From: Candidatus Puniceispirillaceae bacterium
GTDB taxonomy: Bacteria; Pseudomonadota; Alphaproteobacteria; Puniceispirillales; Puniceispirillaceae
Assembly: GCA_049890215.1 (NCBI GenBank)
Contig: JBMHBX010000067.1
Coordinates: 116 to 64,115, forward strand
Direction of reading: 5' to 3'
DNA: 64,000 bases
The notes under the pieces were generated by a model that saw nothing but the letters and a program-made list of their open reading frames with translations, ran no database searches and was not told where the DNA came from. Shown here piece by piece: positions 4,222 to 63,184 of the stretch. The first letter of the stretch is position 1; every line of letters starts with the position of its first letter. The position numbers and the translations under genes were made by a program.

Positions 4222-5524
4222 CCGTCTGTGTCATCTGGCGGATTTATGCACCTCGCTTGTGGCGGATATTGCGCATGCACCTGATTCAAAATCGTGGTTT
4301 GTTGCTTTATCAGGCGGCGCCGATTCTACAGCCCTTTTGCATGTTTTGAGCCAGATCGCACAAAGGCATAAAGCCAGCCTGACAGCGTTAATCGTCAATC
4401 ATAATTTGCGCGAAGACGCCGCACAAGAAGCTGAATTAGTCGCACAAAGATGCCATGACAGACAGATTGACTCTGTCATTTTGACCATCTCGCAAACAGC
4501 GCCAAAATCAGGGCGTCAGGAATGGGCAAGAGCACAAAGATATGCGCTTTTATGTGATCATGTGCGCCGCCATGGCGGGGTGCTGTGGCTTGGTCATCAT
4601 ATGCATGACCAACAGGAGACCATTGCCATGCGTCTTGCCAGAGATAGCGGTCTTGCCGGATTGTCAGCGATGCGCCCAACCCATCACCGCGATGGTGTTT
4701 ATGTATTGCGTCCTTTTTTAACAGTCCCCAAATCAGATCTGATTGCAATTTGCCAGTCACAAAACATCTTATTTGTTGCGGATCCGTCAAATGAAAATCG
4801 TGCTTTTGAGCGCGTCAGATGGCGACAAATCCTTGACCATGACAGGCCATTAGCCGGTATGCTGACACGCATGGGCCTTGTGTCCGGGGCGATTGCCACC
4901 TCTGTAGCAGACGCCATAAAGCCATTTTTCACCCATCATGTCAGCTATAGTTGGTCACAATTATCTGTGATGATAGACAAAAAGGCGTTTCACACATTGC
5001 CAGAGACAGCGCGTTTGCTTGTTTTGCGCCACTTGCTTGTACATATCGGGCATCATCATTATCCGCCATCTTTTGCCTCTGTCAGGAACATCCTGCAAAC
5101 AGACAAAGGGACGGAACAGACAGTCACCTCAACACTTGCAGGCTGCCTTATCAGGCAATCTGCGGATAGTGTGATGATATTTCCTGAGGCAGGGCGTCCT
5201 CATGCGCCCCTGTTTGTGCAGGCAGGCAAGACAATTTGTTATCGTGGCCGGTTTATCATCTATACGCCGCACGATATCATGGTGCATCCTTTATGTGACA
5301 AGCGCTTATCATCCTTATCACAAGATAATCACTATCGCGCTGATTTAATGCGCTATGGCAAAGAAGAAAGGCTTATATTTCCTTTGCCGGTGGCACTTGA
5401 CGAAACACCTATCACTCCCCACATTAAAGACGTAGTGCATATGGGCTATCTCAGCCAGTTGGATTGGTCAGATGATGAAGTTGCCATCTACCCCCTTGGT
5501 CGGTTAGCAATGACCCATATGTAA
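4199..5524 (+). CDS. tilS: tRNA(Ile)-lysidine synthase TilS
   Basis: It carries the PP-loop motif LSGGADSTALL. The tilS-ftsH adjacency is widely conserved. Confidence 0.85.
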   Translation: MKPLVRGSRLCHLADLCTSLVADIAHAPDSKSWFVALSGGADSTALLHVLSQIAQRHKASLTALIVNHNLREDAAQEAELVAQRCHDRQIDSVILTISQTAPKSGRQEWARAQRYALLCDHVRRHGGVLWLGHHMHDQQETIAMRLARDSGLAGLSAMRPTHHRDGVYVLRPFLTVPKSDLIAICQSQNILFVADPSNENRAFERVRWRQILDHDRPLAGMLTRMGLVSGAIATSVADAIKPFFTHHVSYSWSQLSVMIDKKAFHTLPETARLLVLRHLLVHIGHHHYPPSFASVRNILQTDKGTEQTVTSTLAGCLIRQSADSVMIFPEAGRPHAPLFVQAGKTICYRGRFIIYTPHDIMVHPLCDKRLSSLSQDNHYRADLMRYGKEERLIFPLPVALDETPITPHIKDVVHMGYLSQLDWSDDEVAIYPLGRLAMTHM

Positions 5525-58001: not shown

Positions 58002-59324
58002 ATGTCACATATCGTACATATCGGGGTTGGCAATTTTCATCGGGCCCATCAGGCAGATTATATTGCTAAGGCAAATGGGTGGACAATGTCAGCTGTGGTG
58101 ATGAGTAATGCCGGCCTTTTACAACATATGCAAAGATATGATTATCGCTACCTGCTTGGCATATGGGGTAATGACGGCTTGGATTGCCGCCTCATAGACG
58201 CCTATCAAAAGCTATATCTTGCAGGCCGGGATGAGGCTGAGATCATAGAAGACCTAGCGTCTGAGGCAACCAAGATTGTCACATTGACCATCACAGAAAA
58301 AGGCTATTTTCTGAATAAGTCACAAGATGGCTTGTCTTTGGTTTCAGCGCCTGTCAGCCATGATTTGCAATTCGATCATCCGCAAACGGCAATTGGTATG
58401 ATGGCCAAGGCGCTCCATTTGCGCGCTATGACGCATCAAGAGCCAGTATCTTTGCTAAGCTGTGATAATCTTGTGCAGAATGGCCAAAAATTACAGATGG
58501 TGCTCAGGCAATTTATGCATCACAAATATCCCGCCTGCCTGCCATGGTTTGATCTTCATGTCGCTTGTCCAAATGCCATGGTAGACAGAATCACTCCAAA
58601 GCCGGATAAACAGGCTATGACAGATATTTGTGCAAAAGCCGGTCTTGATGATTTCCCTGTGGTGGTAACAGAGGCTTTTTCAGAATGGGTCATTGAAGAT
58701 AAATTTGCCAATGACAGGCCGGAGCTTGAAAGATATGGCGTGGAATTCACCCCTGATGTAAGCGCTTTTGAAGATCGCAAATTGCGCATGCTGAACGCCG
58801 CACACTCTTATTTGGCTTATGCCGGCCTGTTATCAGGCTATCAATTTATCCATGAAGCGATGGCAGACAGGCGCCTCAACAGCCTTGTCAGTCGTCTTTG
58901 GGAAGAGGCAGTGCCAACATTGAAACAAGAGGCAGCGCGTTCATCTGATAGATATGCGGCTGCATTGCGGGCGCGATTTGCCGTGTCGGCAATGCGTCAT
59001 CAATGCGCGCAAATCGCCATAGATGGTAGTCTGAAGATGACACAGCGCCTTGTGCCAATTATCACAAACCGCCACTATTCTGCTTTATCATCACTTGCCT
59101 GCTATGAGGCGGTGGCTGCCTGGCTTGCTTATGTATATTATGTCCTGTCCTCAGGTGATCATCTGGATGACGGGCATGCAGATGATATAACAGCCATGTT
59201 TGACGCCTCAGACAGCAAAGCCCATTTTTGGTCAGCGCTTTTATCCTACATTCAGCTTGATAGCGCACATCATGCGCCGATTATTCAAAATGCTGCCACT
59301 CTATATGCCCAAAAACAAATCTGA
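58002..59324 (+). CDS. uxuB: Mannitol dehydrogenase family oxidoreductase, probably fructuronate reductase (D-mannonate oxidoreductase)
   Basis: It has the N-terminal HIGVGNFHRAHQA dinucleotide-binding motif of the mannitol dehydrogenase family and lies divergent to uxuA. Confidence 0.75.
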   Translation: MSHIVHIGVGNFHRAHQADYIAKANGWTMSAVVMSNAGLLQHMQRYDYRYLLGIWGNDGLDCRLIDAYQKLYLAGRDEAEIIEDLASEATKIVTLTITEKGYFLNKSQDGLSLVSAPVSHDLQFDHPQTAIGMMAKALHLRAMTHQEPVSLLSCDNLVQNGQKLQMVLRQFMHHKYPACLPWFDLHVACPNAMVDRITPKPDKQAMTDICAKAGLDDFPVVVTEAFSEWVIEDKFANDRPELERYGVEFTPDVSAFEDRKLRMLNAAHSYLAYAGLLSGYQFIHEAMADRRLNSLVSRLWEEAVPTLKQEAARSSDRYAAALRARFAVSAMRHQCAQIAIDGSLKMTQRLVPIITNRHYSALSSLACYEAVAAWLAYVYYVLSSGDHLDDGHADDITAMFDASDSKAHFWSALLSYIQLDSAHHAPIIQNAATLYAQKQI

Positions 59325-59594
59325 TTGCGCTTTTTGGCAGGGGTAAAGCTGATGATCAGTGCCCCTAACCAACTGGTACGTGGCTTGATAAAGTTCTGCG
59401 CAATCATGCCAATAAAGCGGACAAATAGCATCTCATTTGGTCCCTCCTGCCATGCCAGATAATACTATTGGTTCATCCATTCGCAGACTGGAAATTCTGT
59501 ATTATACGCATATAGTAAAATTTAATTTAGTTTTTATTAATTTTATTGTATAACCAAAATATTTACGAATTCATAAAAAAATAAGGTGGTCACA

Positions 59595-60131
59595 ATGAAA
59601 AACCTAACAATTGTAAAAAGCTCTGTAATTGCATTAGCGATGTTGTCAGCACCGGCTCTTGCGCAGGACTCAGCAGGTGTGCCGTCACTGGCAGATGTGA
59701 TGGGCGCTATGTCATCTGAAGAAGTAACACAGATGGAAGGCGGCGTTTCTGAAGAAGGCGCATTGTCTCTTGATATGGATGTCACCGTTGAATCAGCCGT
59801 GAATGAAGCTATCGAGGATGGTCTGATTACAGCTGATCAGGCAGAAGATGCCGCAGCGTCTCTTGAAATTATTCAGGCAAATGCTGACTTCTTCAATTTC
59901 GATATTCTTGATGCCATTGGTGAAGTGATTGAGAGCGGCGAATTCTCAGTAGAAGAAATCCGTCAGACTCTGGAAGGCTTCAACACATTGTCAGACGCTG
60001 GTAAGGCGCTTGTCGGTAACGAAGAATTTGATGCGACAGACGTAAGTGATGACTCACTTTTCAATCAGCTATCAGATGCTGATAAGCAAATCGTGCTAAC
60101 ACAGATGCCTGTTGTTGGTGACGACCAGTAA
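59595..60131 (+). CDS. Secreted, extremely acidic hypothetical protein (paralog A)
   Basis: AAGGTGG precedes the ATG at 59595. The signal peptide ends ALAQ. The mature part has about 37 Asp/Glu and 3 Lys/Arg by my count. It is clearly a paralog of the next gene. Confidence 0.7.
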   Translation: MKNLTIVKSSVIALAMLSAPALAQDSAGVPSLADVMGAMSSEEVTQMEGGVSEEGALSLDMDVTVESAVNEAIEDGLITADQAEDAAASLEIIQANADFFNFDILDAIGEVIESGEFSVEEIRQTLEGFNTLSDAGKALVGNEEFDATDVSDDSLFNQLSDADKQIVLTQMPVVGDDQ

Positions 60132-60162
60132 GATTATAGGAACATAACGAGAGGAGATCCCG

Positions 60163-60753
60163 ATGCGTAAATTCCTTATTACCGCTGCTGTTGCAGCATT
60201 CACATTGCCAATGGGCGCAATGGCACAAGACGCAGAAGTACCGGCTCTTGCAGATGTTGTAAGCGGTCTTGATGCGACTGAGCTTTCAGACATGGAAACA
60301 TCAGTAACCGATATTGGCTCTATTTCTGCCGATTTTGATGTTGCCATTGATACAGCAGTGGCAGATGCGATTGAAGAAGGTCTCATCTCTGCTGATGAGG
60401 CAACGGACGCAGCTGCCTCATTGAGCATTATTAGCGATAACGCCCAGTTCTTTGATTTCGACATCATCGAGGTGGTTGGTGAAATTATCCAGTCTGGTGA
60501 ATTTGATATTGCTGATATCCGTCAAACACTTGAAGGCTTTAACAGCTTGTCAGATGCTGACAAGGCAATTGTAGGCCAGCAATCATTTGACACCTATGGC
60601 GGTTATTACACATATGCCTGTGACCCAAGCTGTACCTCTCAGCAAATCGCAGACAGAGACCCAGCTGCAAAAGCGCAGTTTGATTCATTGTCAGATGCAG
60701 GTGAGACAATTGTCCTGACACAAATGCCATTGATACAAGACGAAGACGGCTAG
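60163..60753 (+). CDS. Secreted, extremely acidic hypothetical protein (paralog B, with a Tyr/Gly/Cys insertion)
   Basis: A GAGGAG RBS is present and the signal peptide ends AMAQ. It is roughly two-thirds identical to paralog A over a ~76-residue core by hand alignment. Confidence 0.7.
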   Translation: MRKFLITAAVAAFTLPMGAMAQDAEVPALADVVSGLDATELSDMETSVTDIGSISADFDVAIDTAVADAIEEGLISADEATDAAASLSIISDNAQFFDFDIIEVVGEIIQSGEFDIADIRQTLEGFNSLSDADKAIVGQQSFDTYGGYYTYACDPSCTSQQIADRDPAAKAQFDSLSDAGETIVLTQMPLIQDEDG

Positions 60754-60768
60754 GATCGCAAAAAAAAC

Positions 60769-60819
60769 GGGCAGGTACAAAGTCTGAGGCAATCCTACTG
60801 GTGCCTGCCCCCTTTTTTT
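60769..60819 (+). terminator. Hairpin + T7 between paralog B and the barrel gene (candidate attenuating terminator)
   Basis: A 10-bp stem GGGCAGGTAC/GTGCCTGCCC (one G-T pair) encloses a 22-nt loop and is followed by CC + TTTTTTT. Confidence 0.5.
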
Positions 60820-60843
60820 GGCTGAGAGATAAGGTATAAATTC

Positions 60844-62157
60844 ATGTCATATAATATTAAAGCTACCATCGTAGCTGCGTTTTTAATGTTGGCCGCGTTG
60901 CCAATGAGTGCATCAGCCCAATCTGTTTCAGATGCTGATGTTGCAAATCTGCGTGCTGAAGCACAAGATTTGTTGGTTGAAAAGCAGCCAGAAGAAGCAT
61001 TGCGCAAAATTGAACAGGTCATTATTGCAAGACCAACTGATTTGGCGGCACGTTTCTTCCGTGCGCAAATCCTTGTATCTCTGGGCCGCGGCGCCGAAAT
61101 CAGAGATGAATTGCAATTGATGACAACTTTGAACATCCCGGCAGCGGATAAAGAAAAGGCCCGTCAATTGGTTGCGGTCATTGACAAGGCAGGTCGCCGT
61201 TTTTCAGGTACCATCACCCTCAAGGCAGGCTTTGGTTACGGCAATAACGTAAACTCATGGCCAAATGGCGGTGAGACAACCAACTCAAGCGGTATTAACG
61301 CTGCGTTGGGTGACCCTGTCTATAAGAAATATGAGTCAATTGATGATACCATCAGACAAGCTTCTGTCTCATTCAGCGGCTCTTATCTCTTGTCAGAAGA
61401 TCGTAGCCTGAAGACAAATTTTGGCCTGACAACAAGCCAGAAAGAGGCAGGCGATACAGTGTCAATCGACAGCAAAGTTGTTTCAGCACGCCTTGGCCTG
61501 CAAAAAGACTTTGAGACAAACACAACTGTCAAGGTAAACGCCTCTACAACCTCTCTTGATCGTGTGAATGACAAAGACGGCACAGCGGTGACCTCAGACC
61601 TTGATTATGATATTTATGATTTAGATATCTCTCAAAAGGTATTCGGCTCAACAGCGATTGGTGCAAAATACGCAACAAATGCAAGCCGCAATTCAAAGAT
61701 TGCTAACGCCAAGAATTCAGATTCAAACACAAATACAACATCTGTTTATGTCGGTCGTCCGATTGGCGGGACAGCCTATGGCCGCTTGACCTATTCAATG
61801 GCAAAGGCACGCGCTGATCTGGCAAATGAGACTGCCAAGAAAAAGGTCAATAAAGACACCAATACCTTGTCAGCTCTTGTTGTGAAAGTGTTGCCAAATG
61901 ATCAAAGGATTATTGCGACAATCAGCTTTTCAGAGACAGAACATCTGAAAAAGAAGATCAGCAACAAAAACCGTCTTGATAAAAAGAGAAGTCTGACACT
62001 TAGCTATAACATCAAAGGTGATGCTTTATGGTCACGTCTTGAAGGGTTTGATTTCAGTGTCGATGGTTCCATGTCAGAGACAAAATCAAATCAGGCCTCA
62101 GCGCGTGTTCATGCGAAGACAATCATGTTGAACGTATCACGCAAATTTGATCTGTAA
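60844..62157 (+). CDS. Outer-membrane protein: N-terminal TPR-like helical domain + C-terminal beta-barrel (Slam/DUF560-like, tentative)
   Basis: The signal peptide ends ASAQ. Residues ~30-115 are helical and TPR-like. From ~120 to the end I count about 14 amphipathic alternating-residue segments, running from TITLKAGFGYG to AKTIMLNVSRKF. Confidence 0.6.
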   Translation: MSYNIKATIVAAFLMLAALPMSASAQSVSDADVANLRAEAQDLLVEKQPEEALRKIEQVIIARPTDLAARFFRAQILVSLGRGAEIRDELQLMTTLNIPAADKEKARQLVAVIDKAGRRFSGTITLKAGFGYGNNVNSWPNGGETTNSSGINAALGDPVYKKYESIDDTIRQASVSFSGSYLLSEDRSLKTNFGLTTSQKEAGDTVSIDSKVVSARLGLQKDFETNTTVKVNASTTSLDRVNDKDGTAVTSDLDYDIYDLDISQKVFGSTAIGAKYATNASRNSKIANAKNSDSNTNTTSVYVGRPIGGTAYGRLTYSMAKARADLANETAKKKVNKDTNTLSALVVKVLPNDQRIIATISFSETEHLKKKISNKNRLDKKRSLTLSYNIKGDALWSRLEGFDFSVDGSMSETKSNQASARVHAKTIMLNVSRKFDL

Positions 62158-62186
62158 CAGACAAGTCTTATATCCCATTTTCATGA

Positions 62187-62217
62187 AAACCCGCCTTGTT
62201 TTAGGCGGGTTTTTTTA
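62187..62217 (+). terminator. Rho-independent terminator after the barrel gene
   Basis: The stem ACCCGCC/GGCGGGT has an 8-nt loop and is followed by TTTTTT. Confidence 0.8.
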
Positions 62218-62347
62218 TGAGACCACCTCTTGTTCGGCTATCGCATGCCTTGTATAACCAGATGCCTGTCCGCAAGACATGACCAACAGGGCAGCTCATA
62301 ACACTCTTATCTGGCACAAGACTTAACCGAAAAAAGGGGATTTTAGC

Positions 62348-63184
62348 ATGGCACTGTCATCCACCTACAGAAAACAGATAGCAGCATTTGTGGAAAGCCG
62401 CGCGATGACAGCTTTTATCACAGCGCTGATTTTGGTGAACGCTGTCACACTTGGCATGGAGACAGATAAAGAGCTAAATGCCTCTTTTGGCAGTGCCTTA
62501 TATTGGGCTGATAAGGTGATATTGGTTATATTTACATTTGAGCTTACTTTGAAATTCATTGCCTATCGGTGGTCTTTTTTTCGCTCCGGATGGAATTTAT
62601 TTGATCTTGCGATTGTAACAATTGCCTGGCTGCCAACTTCGGGCGCCCTCACAGTGCTTCGTGCGCTTCGTATTTTGCGTGTTTTACGTCTCATTTCAGT
62701 TGTGCCACAAATGCGGCGCGTAGTGGCTGCGATTGGTCATTCTATACCTGGCATGGTTTCAGTCGTTGGTGTGCTTGGCCTGATATTTTATGTATCTGCC
62801 GTTCTGGCAACAAAGCTGTTTGGCACGCACCCTGACCCTCATATGCAGGAATGGTTTGGTACGATTAGCGCCTCTGCCTATACCTTGTTCCAGATCATGA
62901 CACTTGAAAGCTGGTCTATGGGCGTGGTGCGACCGACTATGTATTTATTTCCCTTTGCATGGGCTTTCTTTTTGCCCTTTATCATTGTGACAAGCTTTGC
63001 TGTGTTGAATTTTTTTATCGGCATTATTGTGGATTCTATGCAGATGGCGCAAAAGCTCGAAGCACAGGAAAGTGGTGATGATGATGATATGCCAATGACG
63101 AAAAAAGATTATCGTGATCTTGTGATGAGAATCGAACAGATTGCTTCACGCCAGTCAGACAAGCCGATTATCAAAGGTAAGTAA
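62348..63184 (+). CDS. Bacterial voltage-gated sodium channel (NaChBac/BacNav family, single 6-TM domain)
   Basis: S4 carries RALRILRVLR, with four Arg at every third position. The pore filter is FQIMTLESWSMGVVRP. A C-terminal coiled-coil-like tail is present. The protein is 278 aa. Confidence 0.9.
   Translation: MALSSTYRKQIAAFVESRAMTAFITALILVNAVTLGMETDKELNASFGSALYWADKVILVIFTFELTLKFIAYRWSFFRSGWNLFDLAIVTIAWLPTSGALTVLRALRILRVLRLISVVPQMRRVVAAIGHSIPGMVSVVGVLGLIFYVSAVLATKLFGTHPDPHMQEWFGTISASAYTLFQIMTLESWSMGVVRPTMYLFPFAWAFFLPFIIVTSFAVLNFFIGIIVDSMQMAQKLEAQESGDDDDMPMTKKDYRDLVMRIEQIASRQSDKPIIKGK

Follow-up and report, generated by a model that had tools for sequence, protein, structure and literature searches.

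A strictly linked gene pair encoding hyperacidic exported proteins and a divergent Slam-like outer membrane barrel: a candidate type 11-like export module in SAR116 bacteria

INTRODUCTION

Does an outer membrane barrel export the small, extremely acidic proteins encoded directly upstream of it, or does it serve them in some other way? This question is raised by a locus in a 64,000-nucleotide stretch of DNA (the window; assembly GCA_049890215.1, contig JBMHBX010000067.1, positions 116 to 64,115) that comes from a metagenome-assembled genome of Candidatus Puniceispirillaceae (SAR116). Three consecutive genes encode two paralogous hyperacidic proteins, A and B, and an outer membrane protein (OMP) in which a tetratricopeptide repeat (TPR)-like domain precedes a β-barrel. 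A first-pass annotation of the DNA had proposed that the three genes constitute an undescribed cargo and translocon system with the architecture of Slam/DUF560 (type 11 secretion) loci, and had offered the alternative that the barrel is an unrelated porin.

Among Gram-negative secretion systems, the type 11 secretion system (T11SS) is the latest to have been named. To our knowledge, all verified T11SS cargo come from animal-associated bacteria, and all have one β-barrel targeting domain. DUF560 OMPs combine a 14-stranded barrel with a periplasmic, TPR-containing N-terminal domain (PMC8406197), and the known and predicted cargo are unified by a C-terminal 8-stranded β-barrel that is thought to target them for secretion (PMC8406197, PMC12282271). 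For the pair HrpB/HrpC, OMP-dependent secretion was examined by coexpression and secretion assays (PMC8406197). Marine T11SS, according to the authors of a survey, are largely without recognizable cargo (PMC12282271). In the marine cluster 3 T11SS of Rhodobacteraceae/Roseobacteraceae, canonical cargo are rare (0.21 per OMP), and one to three adjacent paralogous, mostly Sec-exported DUF1194 proteins (vWA-like, MIDAS) were proposed, not shown, to be alternative cargo (PMC12282271). The analysis reported here points to a divergent type 11-like translocon with an unfamiliar kind of cargo as a possible answer to the question that the SAR116 locus poses.

RESULTS

The acidic and barrel genes form a strictly linked pair

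The module consists of three co-directional open reading frames (ORFs), all on the + strand. Gene A (59595..60131) encodes a 178-aa hyperacidic protein, gene B (60163..60753) its 196-aa paralog, and the barrel gene (60844..62157) a 437-aa OMP; the last two were taken from the ORF list, and the extent of gene A was set from the ORF list, a reading of the sequence, and the starts of its homologs. The gaps are 31 nt between A and B and 90 nt between B and the barrel gene. The first-pass annotation had described this arrangement, together with an AT-rich leader and a closing terminator, and all of these elements are present at the positions it gave.

Homologs of the acidic genes and of the barrel gene were found together wherever both could be seen. 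A barrel-based scan of 185,579 species-representative genomes recovered nine loci, and look-ups of exact proteins supplied three more; an acidic-family gene lies directly upstream, on the same strand, in 11/11 of the genome loci that include upstream DNA. A scan of metagenomes based on the acidic proteins recovered 21 loci, and the barrel gene comes next in all 16 in which downstream gene sequence was recovered (the remaining five contigs stop about 30 to 210 nt past the acidic gene). Three barrels at a greater distance keep this pairing too (P0117, P0119, and P0124; E 5e-74 to 5e-52): the unannotated genes upstream of them score E 1e-50 to 2e-26 against the acidic-family profile. In total, acidic and barrel genes are adjacent and co-directional in 30/30 informative loci; barrel identity drops to ~38% within the confirmed genome loci and is lower still in the three distant loci. 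The genes on both flanks vary between loci, and thus only the acidic-barrel pair is conserved. We conclude that this linkage is strict and ancient. Co-occurrence of the two families across genomes, which had been suggested as a check on the cargo and translocon proposal, was therefore observed throughout, and it contradicts the idea of the barrel as an unrelated porin.

The range of the homologs is fairly narrow and lies within marine alphaproteobacterial lineages. Some loci have a single acidic gene, which is usually A-like; the others have two, the first A-like and the second B-like or ambiguous. Genes for a TonB-dependent receptor or for TonB are absent from the vicinity of the module.

Several details of individual loci were also noted. 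In strain HIMB100, which carries the module at AFXB01000001.1 107601-120872, a gene for a giant protein of 7,426 aa (L003:1-1856) stops ~2.8 kb before the module, and a mannitol dehydrogenase gene stands near the module both there and in the window, a trace of shared synteny. At three loci, two or three ORFs stand in place of an intact acidic gene (L001:5348-5937, L002:5232-5808, and L012:3260-3893). Two of these loci are on long-read "pilon" contigs, and the breaks are probably sequencing frameshifts rather than signs of pseudogenes.

The acidic proteins belong to an orphan family

The first-pass annotation had characterized A and B as acidic paralogs that look helical, lack a lipobox, are built around a repeated F-x-x-LSDA motif, and differ from known cargo; every part of this description held up. 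The two proteins are paralogs with 47% identity (E 8e-54). Both begin with a signal peptide of the Sec/signal peptidase I type, cleaved at ALA|QD in A and at AMA|QD in B, and neither has a Cys close to the cleavage site. Mature A contains 36 acidic (D+E) against 3 basic (K+R) residues and no Cys, and mature B contains 38 against 4, giving each a net charge of about -33 and an isoelectric point (pI) of about 4.05. This acidity is family-wide, with 26 to 45 D+E against 4 to 9 K+R across 30 members. B carries a Cys pair (ACDPSC) inside an insertion; disulfide-type Cys pairs are a feature of B-type proteins, and the pair in B fits folding outside the cytoplasm.

The motif, in full F-x-x-LSDA-x-K-x-I-V, occurs twice in each protein; the copies in B are FNSLSDADKAIV and FDSLSDAGETIV. 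A profile-profile comparison matches the two 18-residue copies with a probability of 96.7%, and the N-terminal part of the family contains no further copy of the repeat (hhalign 4.6%). Conserved parts of the acidic proteins are 93-142 and a C-terminal MPV region. Both A and B are predicted to be all-helical; the AlphaFold model of B is entirely so, with a predicted local distance difference test score (pLDDT) of 76 overall and above 90 for approximately residues 90 to 190.

Neither protein matches a Pfam, NCBIfam, or PADLOC family, neither has an 8-stranded barrel, and a fold search with the acidic model against the PDB and the viral database BFVD gave no match below E 0.8. We considered an EF-hand identity and rejected it: the best sequence-profile match in the PDB, calexcitin, is not significant (E 0.18), and the acidic proteins have neither a Pfam match nor a fold match to EF-hands. 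A search of 5.8 billion proteins with the acidic-family profile identified at least 153 clusters. Among the 120 clusters listed, none has a Pfam domain, and source names, where present, read just "hypothetical protein." Judged by these comparisons of sequence and predicted fold, A and B represent an orphan family that is outside all known T11SS cargo classes (TbpB, hemophilin, NilC, and Pls types).

The barrel protein appears to be a divergent member of the Slam/DUF560 superfamily

The barrel protein starts with a signal peptide (aa 1-25, from the sequence), followed by a TPR-like helical domain (aa 30-117; 60931-61194, + strand), recognized from the AlphaFold model and weak TPR matches, and a 14-stranded β-barrel (aa 120-436; 61201-62151, + strand), recognized from the model. 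In that model, about 90 helical residues precede 14 long strands, with a mean pLDDT of 81 and values above 90 in most blocks of the barrel. TPR-like helices and 14 strands, the counterparts of the TPR domain and the barrel of ~14 strands that had been read from the sequence, are thus both seen in the model, in the topology described for Slam proteins (PMC8406197). In the TPR groove, ARFFRAQ and R82-G83-E85 are invariant.

Family databases say little about this protein. Pfam and NCBIfam report just weak TPR matches (in Pfam the sub-threshold, generic TPR_16, E 0.005, and TPR_19, E 0.009), and beyond these the search of all three proteins against Pfam, NCBIfam, and PADLOC gave just chance-level matches to TMP_3, Fae, and JetA, which we rejected. 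No YaiO, BcsC, or PgaA match was obtained in Pfam or NCBIfam, nor an AlgE match in Pfam. A confident score as a member of another family, which the first-pass annotation had named as grounds for refutation, was not obtained. Against the sequence profiles of the PDB, the barrel profile found nothing below E 0.14.

Relationships became visible when a profile of 27 barrel-family members was used to search 1.84 billion representative proteins with HMMER. The 194 matches include, beyond the barrel family itself, a series of full-length TPR-barrel relatives, and those at E 1e-5 to 1e-7 include PF04575 proteins above the gathering threshold (P0231, 48 bits; P0233, 44 bits; P0224, 29 bits). Because these matches rest partly on the TPR region, the barrel parts were compared alone, profile to profile. 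In this barrel-only comparison, the family aligned end to end with six PF04575-matching barrels (hhalign probability 98.2%, E 5e-14, 294 columns). Reversed-sequence controls, in which either side was flipped so that composition and strand periodicity were preserved, gave 1.7% and 0.5%. An intermediate family bridges the two groups, with hhalign probabilities of 99.8% to the barrel family and 99.5% to the PF04575 barrels, and a comparison restricted to the TPR parts gave 97.2% against PF04575 proteins. All 47 proteins in the alignment have three short motifs in common: strand 1 is followed by G-x-x-x-(D/N)-N-x-N-x-x-P, a late strand contains R-x-D, and the last strand is preceded by S-N, with an aromatic residue at the terminus. 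From these alignments we conclude that the barrel protein is a divergent Slam/DUF560-superfamily member outside the current Pfam model. The Slam/DUF560 resemblance pointed out in the first-pass annotation is upheld as homology of the barrel itself to PF04575 proteins; formal membership is not, the threshold of PF04575 not being reached.

On four contigs from one estuarine sample series (L022-L025), separate ORFs encode the TPR part and the barrel part of the protein. The break coincides exactly with the junction of the two domains (e.g., L023:2966-2993) and falls at a run of six G residues, GATGGGGGGCGG. A true frameshift in this allele, slipped-strand phase variation, or an assembly error made repeatedly could account for it.

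Distant barrel relatives have other acidic partners

Some distant relatives of the barrel are paired with proteins of a different kind. P0135, P0148, and P0162 are each encoded directly downstream of, and co-directionally with, a FecR-domain (PF04773) protein of 494 to 682 aa, and the true PF04575 protein P0231 is encoded directly upstream of a co-directional FecR-domain protein of 869 aa. The FecR-domain genes are at L013:466-1950, L041:1810-3459, L042:1456-3504, and L043:4924-7533, and the four barrels match the barrel profile at E 3e-34 to 2e-5. All four FecR-domain neighbors have a pI of 4.05 to 4.17, and three of them (upstream of P0135, P0148, and P0162) have a clear Sec signal peptide. 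A relationship between these proteins and the acidic family was considered and rejected (hmmsearch E above 0.03; hhalign 0.2%). A pore that stays the same while its acidic, Sec-exported neighbors change is what one would expect of a translocon whose cargo has diversified. The pairing of such barrels with FecR-domain proteins is unmentioned in PMC8406197 and PMC12282271.

Other neighbors of the distant relatives were recorded. P0141 adjoins a secretin gene (L040:1092-3215), and the P0162 locus also contains POTRA_2 and N_methyl (pseudopilin-like) genes (L042:257-1439 and 4858-5382). This gene content hints that some Slam-like barrels may be linked to type 2/type 4 pilus-like machinery.

Signals in the module would fit unequal expression of its genes

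The candidate attenuating terminator between gene B and the barrel gene (60769..60819, + strand) was identified by comparing its folding energy with that of shuffled sequences. It has a 10-bp GC-rich stem (60769-60778 with 60801-60810), a 22-nt loop, and a run of seven T residues (60813-60819), and it is preceded by eight A residues. The first-pass annotation had noted a hairpin with a T-run at this place, and the folding calculation agrees: the predicted free energy is -28.5 kcal/mol (z = -4.0), and 0/200 shuffles fold equally well. The distance from the T-run to the ATG of the barrel gene is only 24 nt, which leaves no space for a promoter of its own; the barrel gene would thus need read-through transcription. 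These features fit, but do not prove, the idea that the hairpin is an attenuator yielding a surplus of small protein over barrel. Hairpins also occur in the acidic-barrel gap of 13 of the 16 related loci in which this gap exceeds 60 nt; their sequences are unrelated, and several have T-runs.

An intrinsic terminator closes the module (62187..62217, + strand; identified by folding energy and a T7 tail), with a stem formed by 62190-62196 and 62203-62209, a T-run at 62210-62216, and a free energy of -23.5 kcal/mol (z = -6.7). A simple terminator scan missed both hairpins; its loop limit of 8 nt is exceeded by the hairpin between B and the barrel gene. An Rfam scan of 59200-62400 gave sub-threshold matches only, all on the final terminator; among them, Leu_leader was rejected as a generic hairpin (27 bits against a cutoff of 50).

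Upstream of gene A, GC content and a reading of the sequence delimit an AT-rich leader and promoter region (59475..59594, + strand); the GC content is 0.24 at 59475-59624 against ~0.45 in the surroundings. A promoter-like site (TGGAAA-16-TATAGT, 9/12 positions) is located at 59489-59516, although a simple promoter scan found such sites to be no more numerous than in shuffled sequence. The ribosome-binding site (RBS) of gene A, AAGGTGG, is at 59583-59589. We place the start of gene A at the ATG at 59595 rather than at the listed GTG at 59586, because this ATG comes 5 nt after the RBS and the starts of homologs agree with it.

A near-perfect 16-bp palindrome, TTTACGAATTCATAAA, lies at 59563-59578, between the promoter-like site and the RBS, and may be an operator; conservation of this palindrome in related loci was not found. 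One sub-clade of related loci has a conserved ~30-nt motif, TTGATCCAAAAGGTTAATGCCATTAGCGAT, ~60 to 75 nt upstream of the acidic gene (L016:845-875; also L018, L020, L021, L026, L027, L030, L032, L011, L012, and L022). It may be a promoter or operator, and the window lacks it. The upstream motif of related loci TTGATCCAAAAGGTTAATGC has no match in the window at up to 3 mismatches.

The genes that flank the module in the window, encoding UxuA, mannitol dehydrogenase, an Ion_trans channel, and an epimerase, are unrelated to it. The Ion_trans gene (62348-63184; 278 aa; voltage-gated-type cation channel, E 1.6e-41) is directly downstream of the module, and this neighbor is probably unconnected with it, because it was unseen in the loci with called genes listed.

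DISCUSSION

A candidate translocon with helical cargo

In the reading that we favor, and to which we assign a probability of roughly one half, the module encodes a divergent type 11-like translocon and, as its cargo, a new family of hyperacidic, helical, non-β-barrel proteins. According to this model, the module would be a self-contained, two-component outer membrane export system. A and B would be made in excess from the AT-rich promoter with strong ribosome-binding sites, reach the periplasm via Sec, and be cleaved by signal peptidase I, while the barrel gene would be transcribed only through read-through of the attenuating hairpin. A and B would then be received by the periplasmic TPR domain and carried through the 14-stranded barrel to the cell surface or into the medium. 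Once outside, the polyanionic proteins would most plausibly serve their oligotrophic marine host as binders of cations or cationic nutrients.

A broader proposition, which we put forward more tentatively, is that Slam/type 11-like barrels can export all-helical, hyperacidic, soluble proteins that lack an 8-stranded targeting barrel. The module would then represent a second mode of cargo recognition, in which the TPR domain and, on the cargo side, the conserved C-terminal two-thirds probably take part. A and B would belong to an extracellular family for the capture of cations or trace metals in SAR116.

Several observations weigh against an export role. The barrel protein has no match to PF04575 (SlipAM/DUF560) or PF24575 (TPR_Slam) even at E <= 1, and the closest intermediate relative, P0143, scores 20.6 bits on PF04575, for which the cutoff is 22. 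The C-terminal 8-stranded β-barrel common to known and predicted T11SS cargo is missing from A and B (PMC8406197, PMC12282271). The best matches of the barrel among solved structures are the monomeric 14-strand porins OmpG and CymA, which led a Foldseek search of the PDB with TM-scores (normalized to the target) of 0.60 to 0.76. Finally, what ties A and B to the barrel is gene linkage, which would suit any obligate partnership equally well.

Alternative explanations

The main alternative, which we regard as less likely than export yet as a serious rival, keeps A and B in the periplasm and makes the barrel an OmpG/CymA-type 14-strand channel for the uptake or gating of cations or small solutes. 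The polyanionic proteins would dock on the TPR domain and act as a cation sink, a binding protein, or a regulator. The porin matches just described favor this explanation, the extreme and conserved negative charge suits cation binding, and the strict linkage and the missing targeting barrel are both compatible with it. However, the sequence profiles place the barrel in the Slam/DUF560 superfamily and not among porins, and OmpG and CymA have no periplasmic TPR domain. The fold search itself is unable to decide the family of the barrel, because no Slam entry is among the 50 PDB matches listed. Moreover, the distant relatives pair with FecR-domain proteins of 494 to 869 aa, and one with a secretin, which resembles export rather than solute uptake, and the calexcitin similarity that might have supported a cation-binding fold is not significant.

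It is very improbable that the TPR-barrel protein is a miniature polysaccharide exporter of the PelB/BcsC/PgaA type with A and B as accessory periplasmic proteins. PelB (rank 2, E 4.8e-12) and BcsC (rank 43) are among the Foldseek matches listed, but the superpositions are poor, with TM-scores of 0.36 to 0.38 and root mean square deviations of 12 to 13 Å. PgaA-type exporters carry much longer TPR arrays. Some PgaA homologs are assigned to PF04575, yet the PgaA type has a 16-stranded barrel (PMC8406197), against 14 strands and ~90 helical residues here. The Pfam searches for BcsC, PgaA, and AlgE were negative, and no glycosyltransferase or polysaccharide genes stand beside the pair in the loci with called genes listed.

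That the three are hypothetical genes inherited side by side, forming no functional unit, is hardly credible: the narrow marine alphaproteobacterial range of the homologs means that shared ancestry adds to the linkage, but the pair stays together in every informative locus despite the divergence of the barrels, both flanks are replaced between loci, and the intergenic hairpin is kept in position and not in sequence.

Relation to known systems

Our favored export reading draws on the likeness of the module to Slam/T11SS systems (Neisseria meningitidis Slam1/2, Xenorhabdus nematophila NilB, and HrpB). In both cases, a signal peptide, a short periplasmic domain (TPR-containing in Slam proteins, TPR-like here), and a 14-stranded barrel are combined; a single OMP is the sole dedicated component and is encoded beside one or more Sec-exported partners; and the barrels share profile-profile homology (98%) and common motifs. 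The differences are equally clear. The barrel protein here scores below the thresholds of PF04575 and PF24575, and its partners are all-α, hyperacidic, and unlipidated, without the C-terminal barrel (TbpBBD/lipoprotein C) and handle domains of known T11SS cargo. No TonB-dependent receptor or TonB accompanies the module, and the host is a free-living marine SAR116 bacterium, not an animal-associated one.

Cluster 3 T11SS offer the closest precedent, as they too are found in marine alphaproteobacteria, have rare or absent canonical β-barrel cargo, and are encoded next to paralogous, mostly Sec-exported, non-lipidated proteins of likely cation-binding character. However, cluster 3 OMPs are recognized PF04575 members, whereas the OMP here is more divergent; their DUF1194 neighbors are α/β and Rossmann-like, whereas A and B form an all-helical orphan family; and the conserved unit here is the pair alone, without the thymidylate synthase and glyoxalase neighbors. 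The FecR-paired Slam-like barrels resemble the module in having a homologous barrel and an adjacent, co-directional partner with a pI of ~4.1, and differ in that the partner is much larger, has a FecR domain, and shows no detectable homology to A and B. OmpG and CymA share the 14 strands and are the best solved-structure matches, but they have ~10% identity to the barrel, give no sequence-profile match, and lack the TPR domain. We know of no genetic coupling of OmpG or CymA to acidic exported partners.

In the literature, we found no description of the acidic-barrel module or of a helical T11SS cargo. Surveys of T11SS could not have captured this barrel family, because they started from PF04575 membership.

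Implications

What is new here is the partner family, its strict pairing with the barrel, and the absence of a canonical targeting domain; the pore superfamily is known. The module is a minimal, strictly linked pair. The partner is the structural opposite of known cargo, and the pore diverges too far to be picked up by the Pfam model on which the earlier surveys relied. If the barrel is indeed a translocon and the acidic proteins its cargo, the boundary of the T11SS family would widen, the rule that cargo are targeted by a β-barrel would be broken, and a tractable two-gene system would be at hand for the study of substrate recognition by Slam-type barrels. It would also give a role, possibly in the acquisition of cations or trace metals, to an orphan protein family of SAR116, an abundant clade of ocean bacterioplankton.

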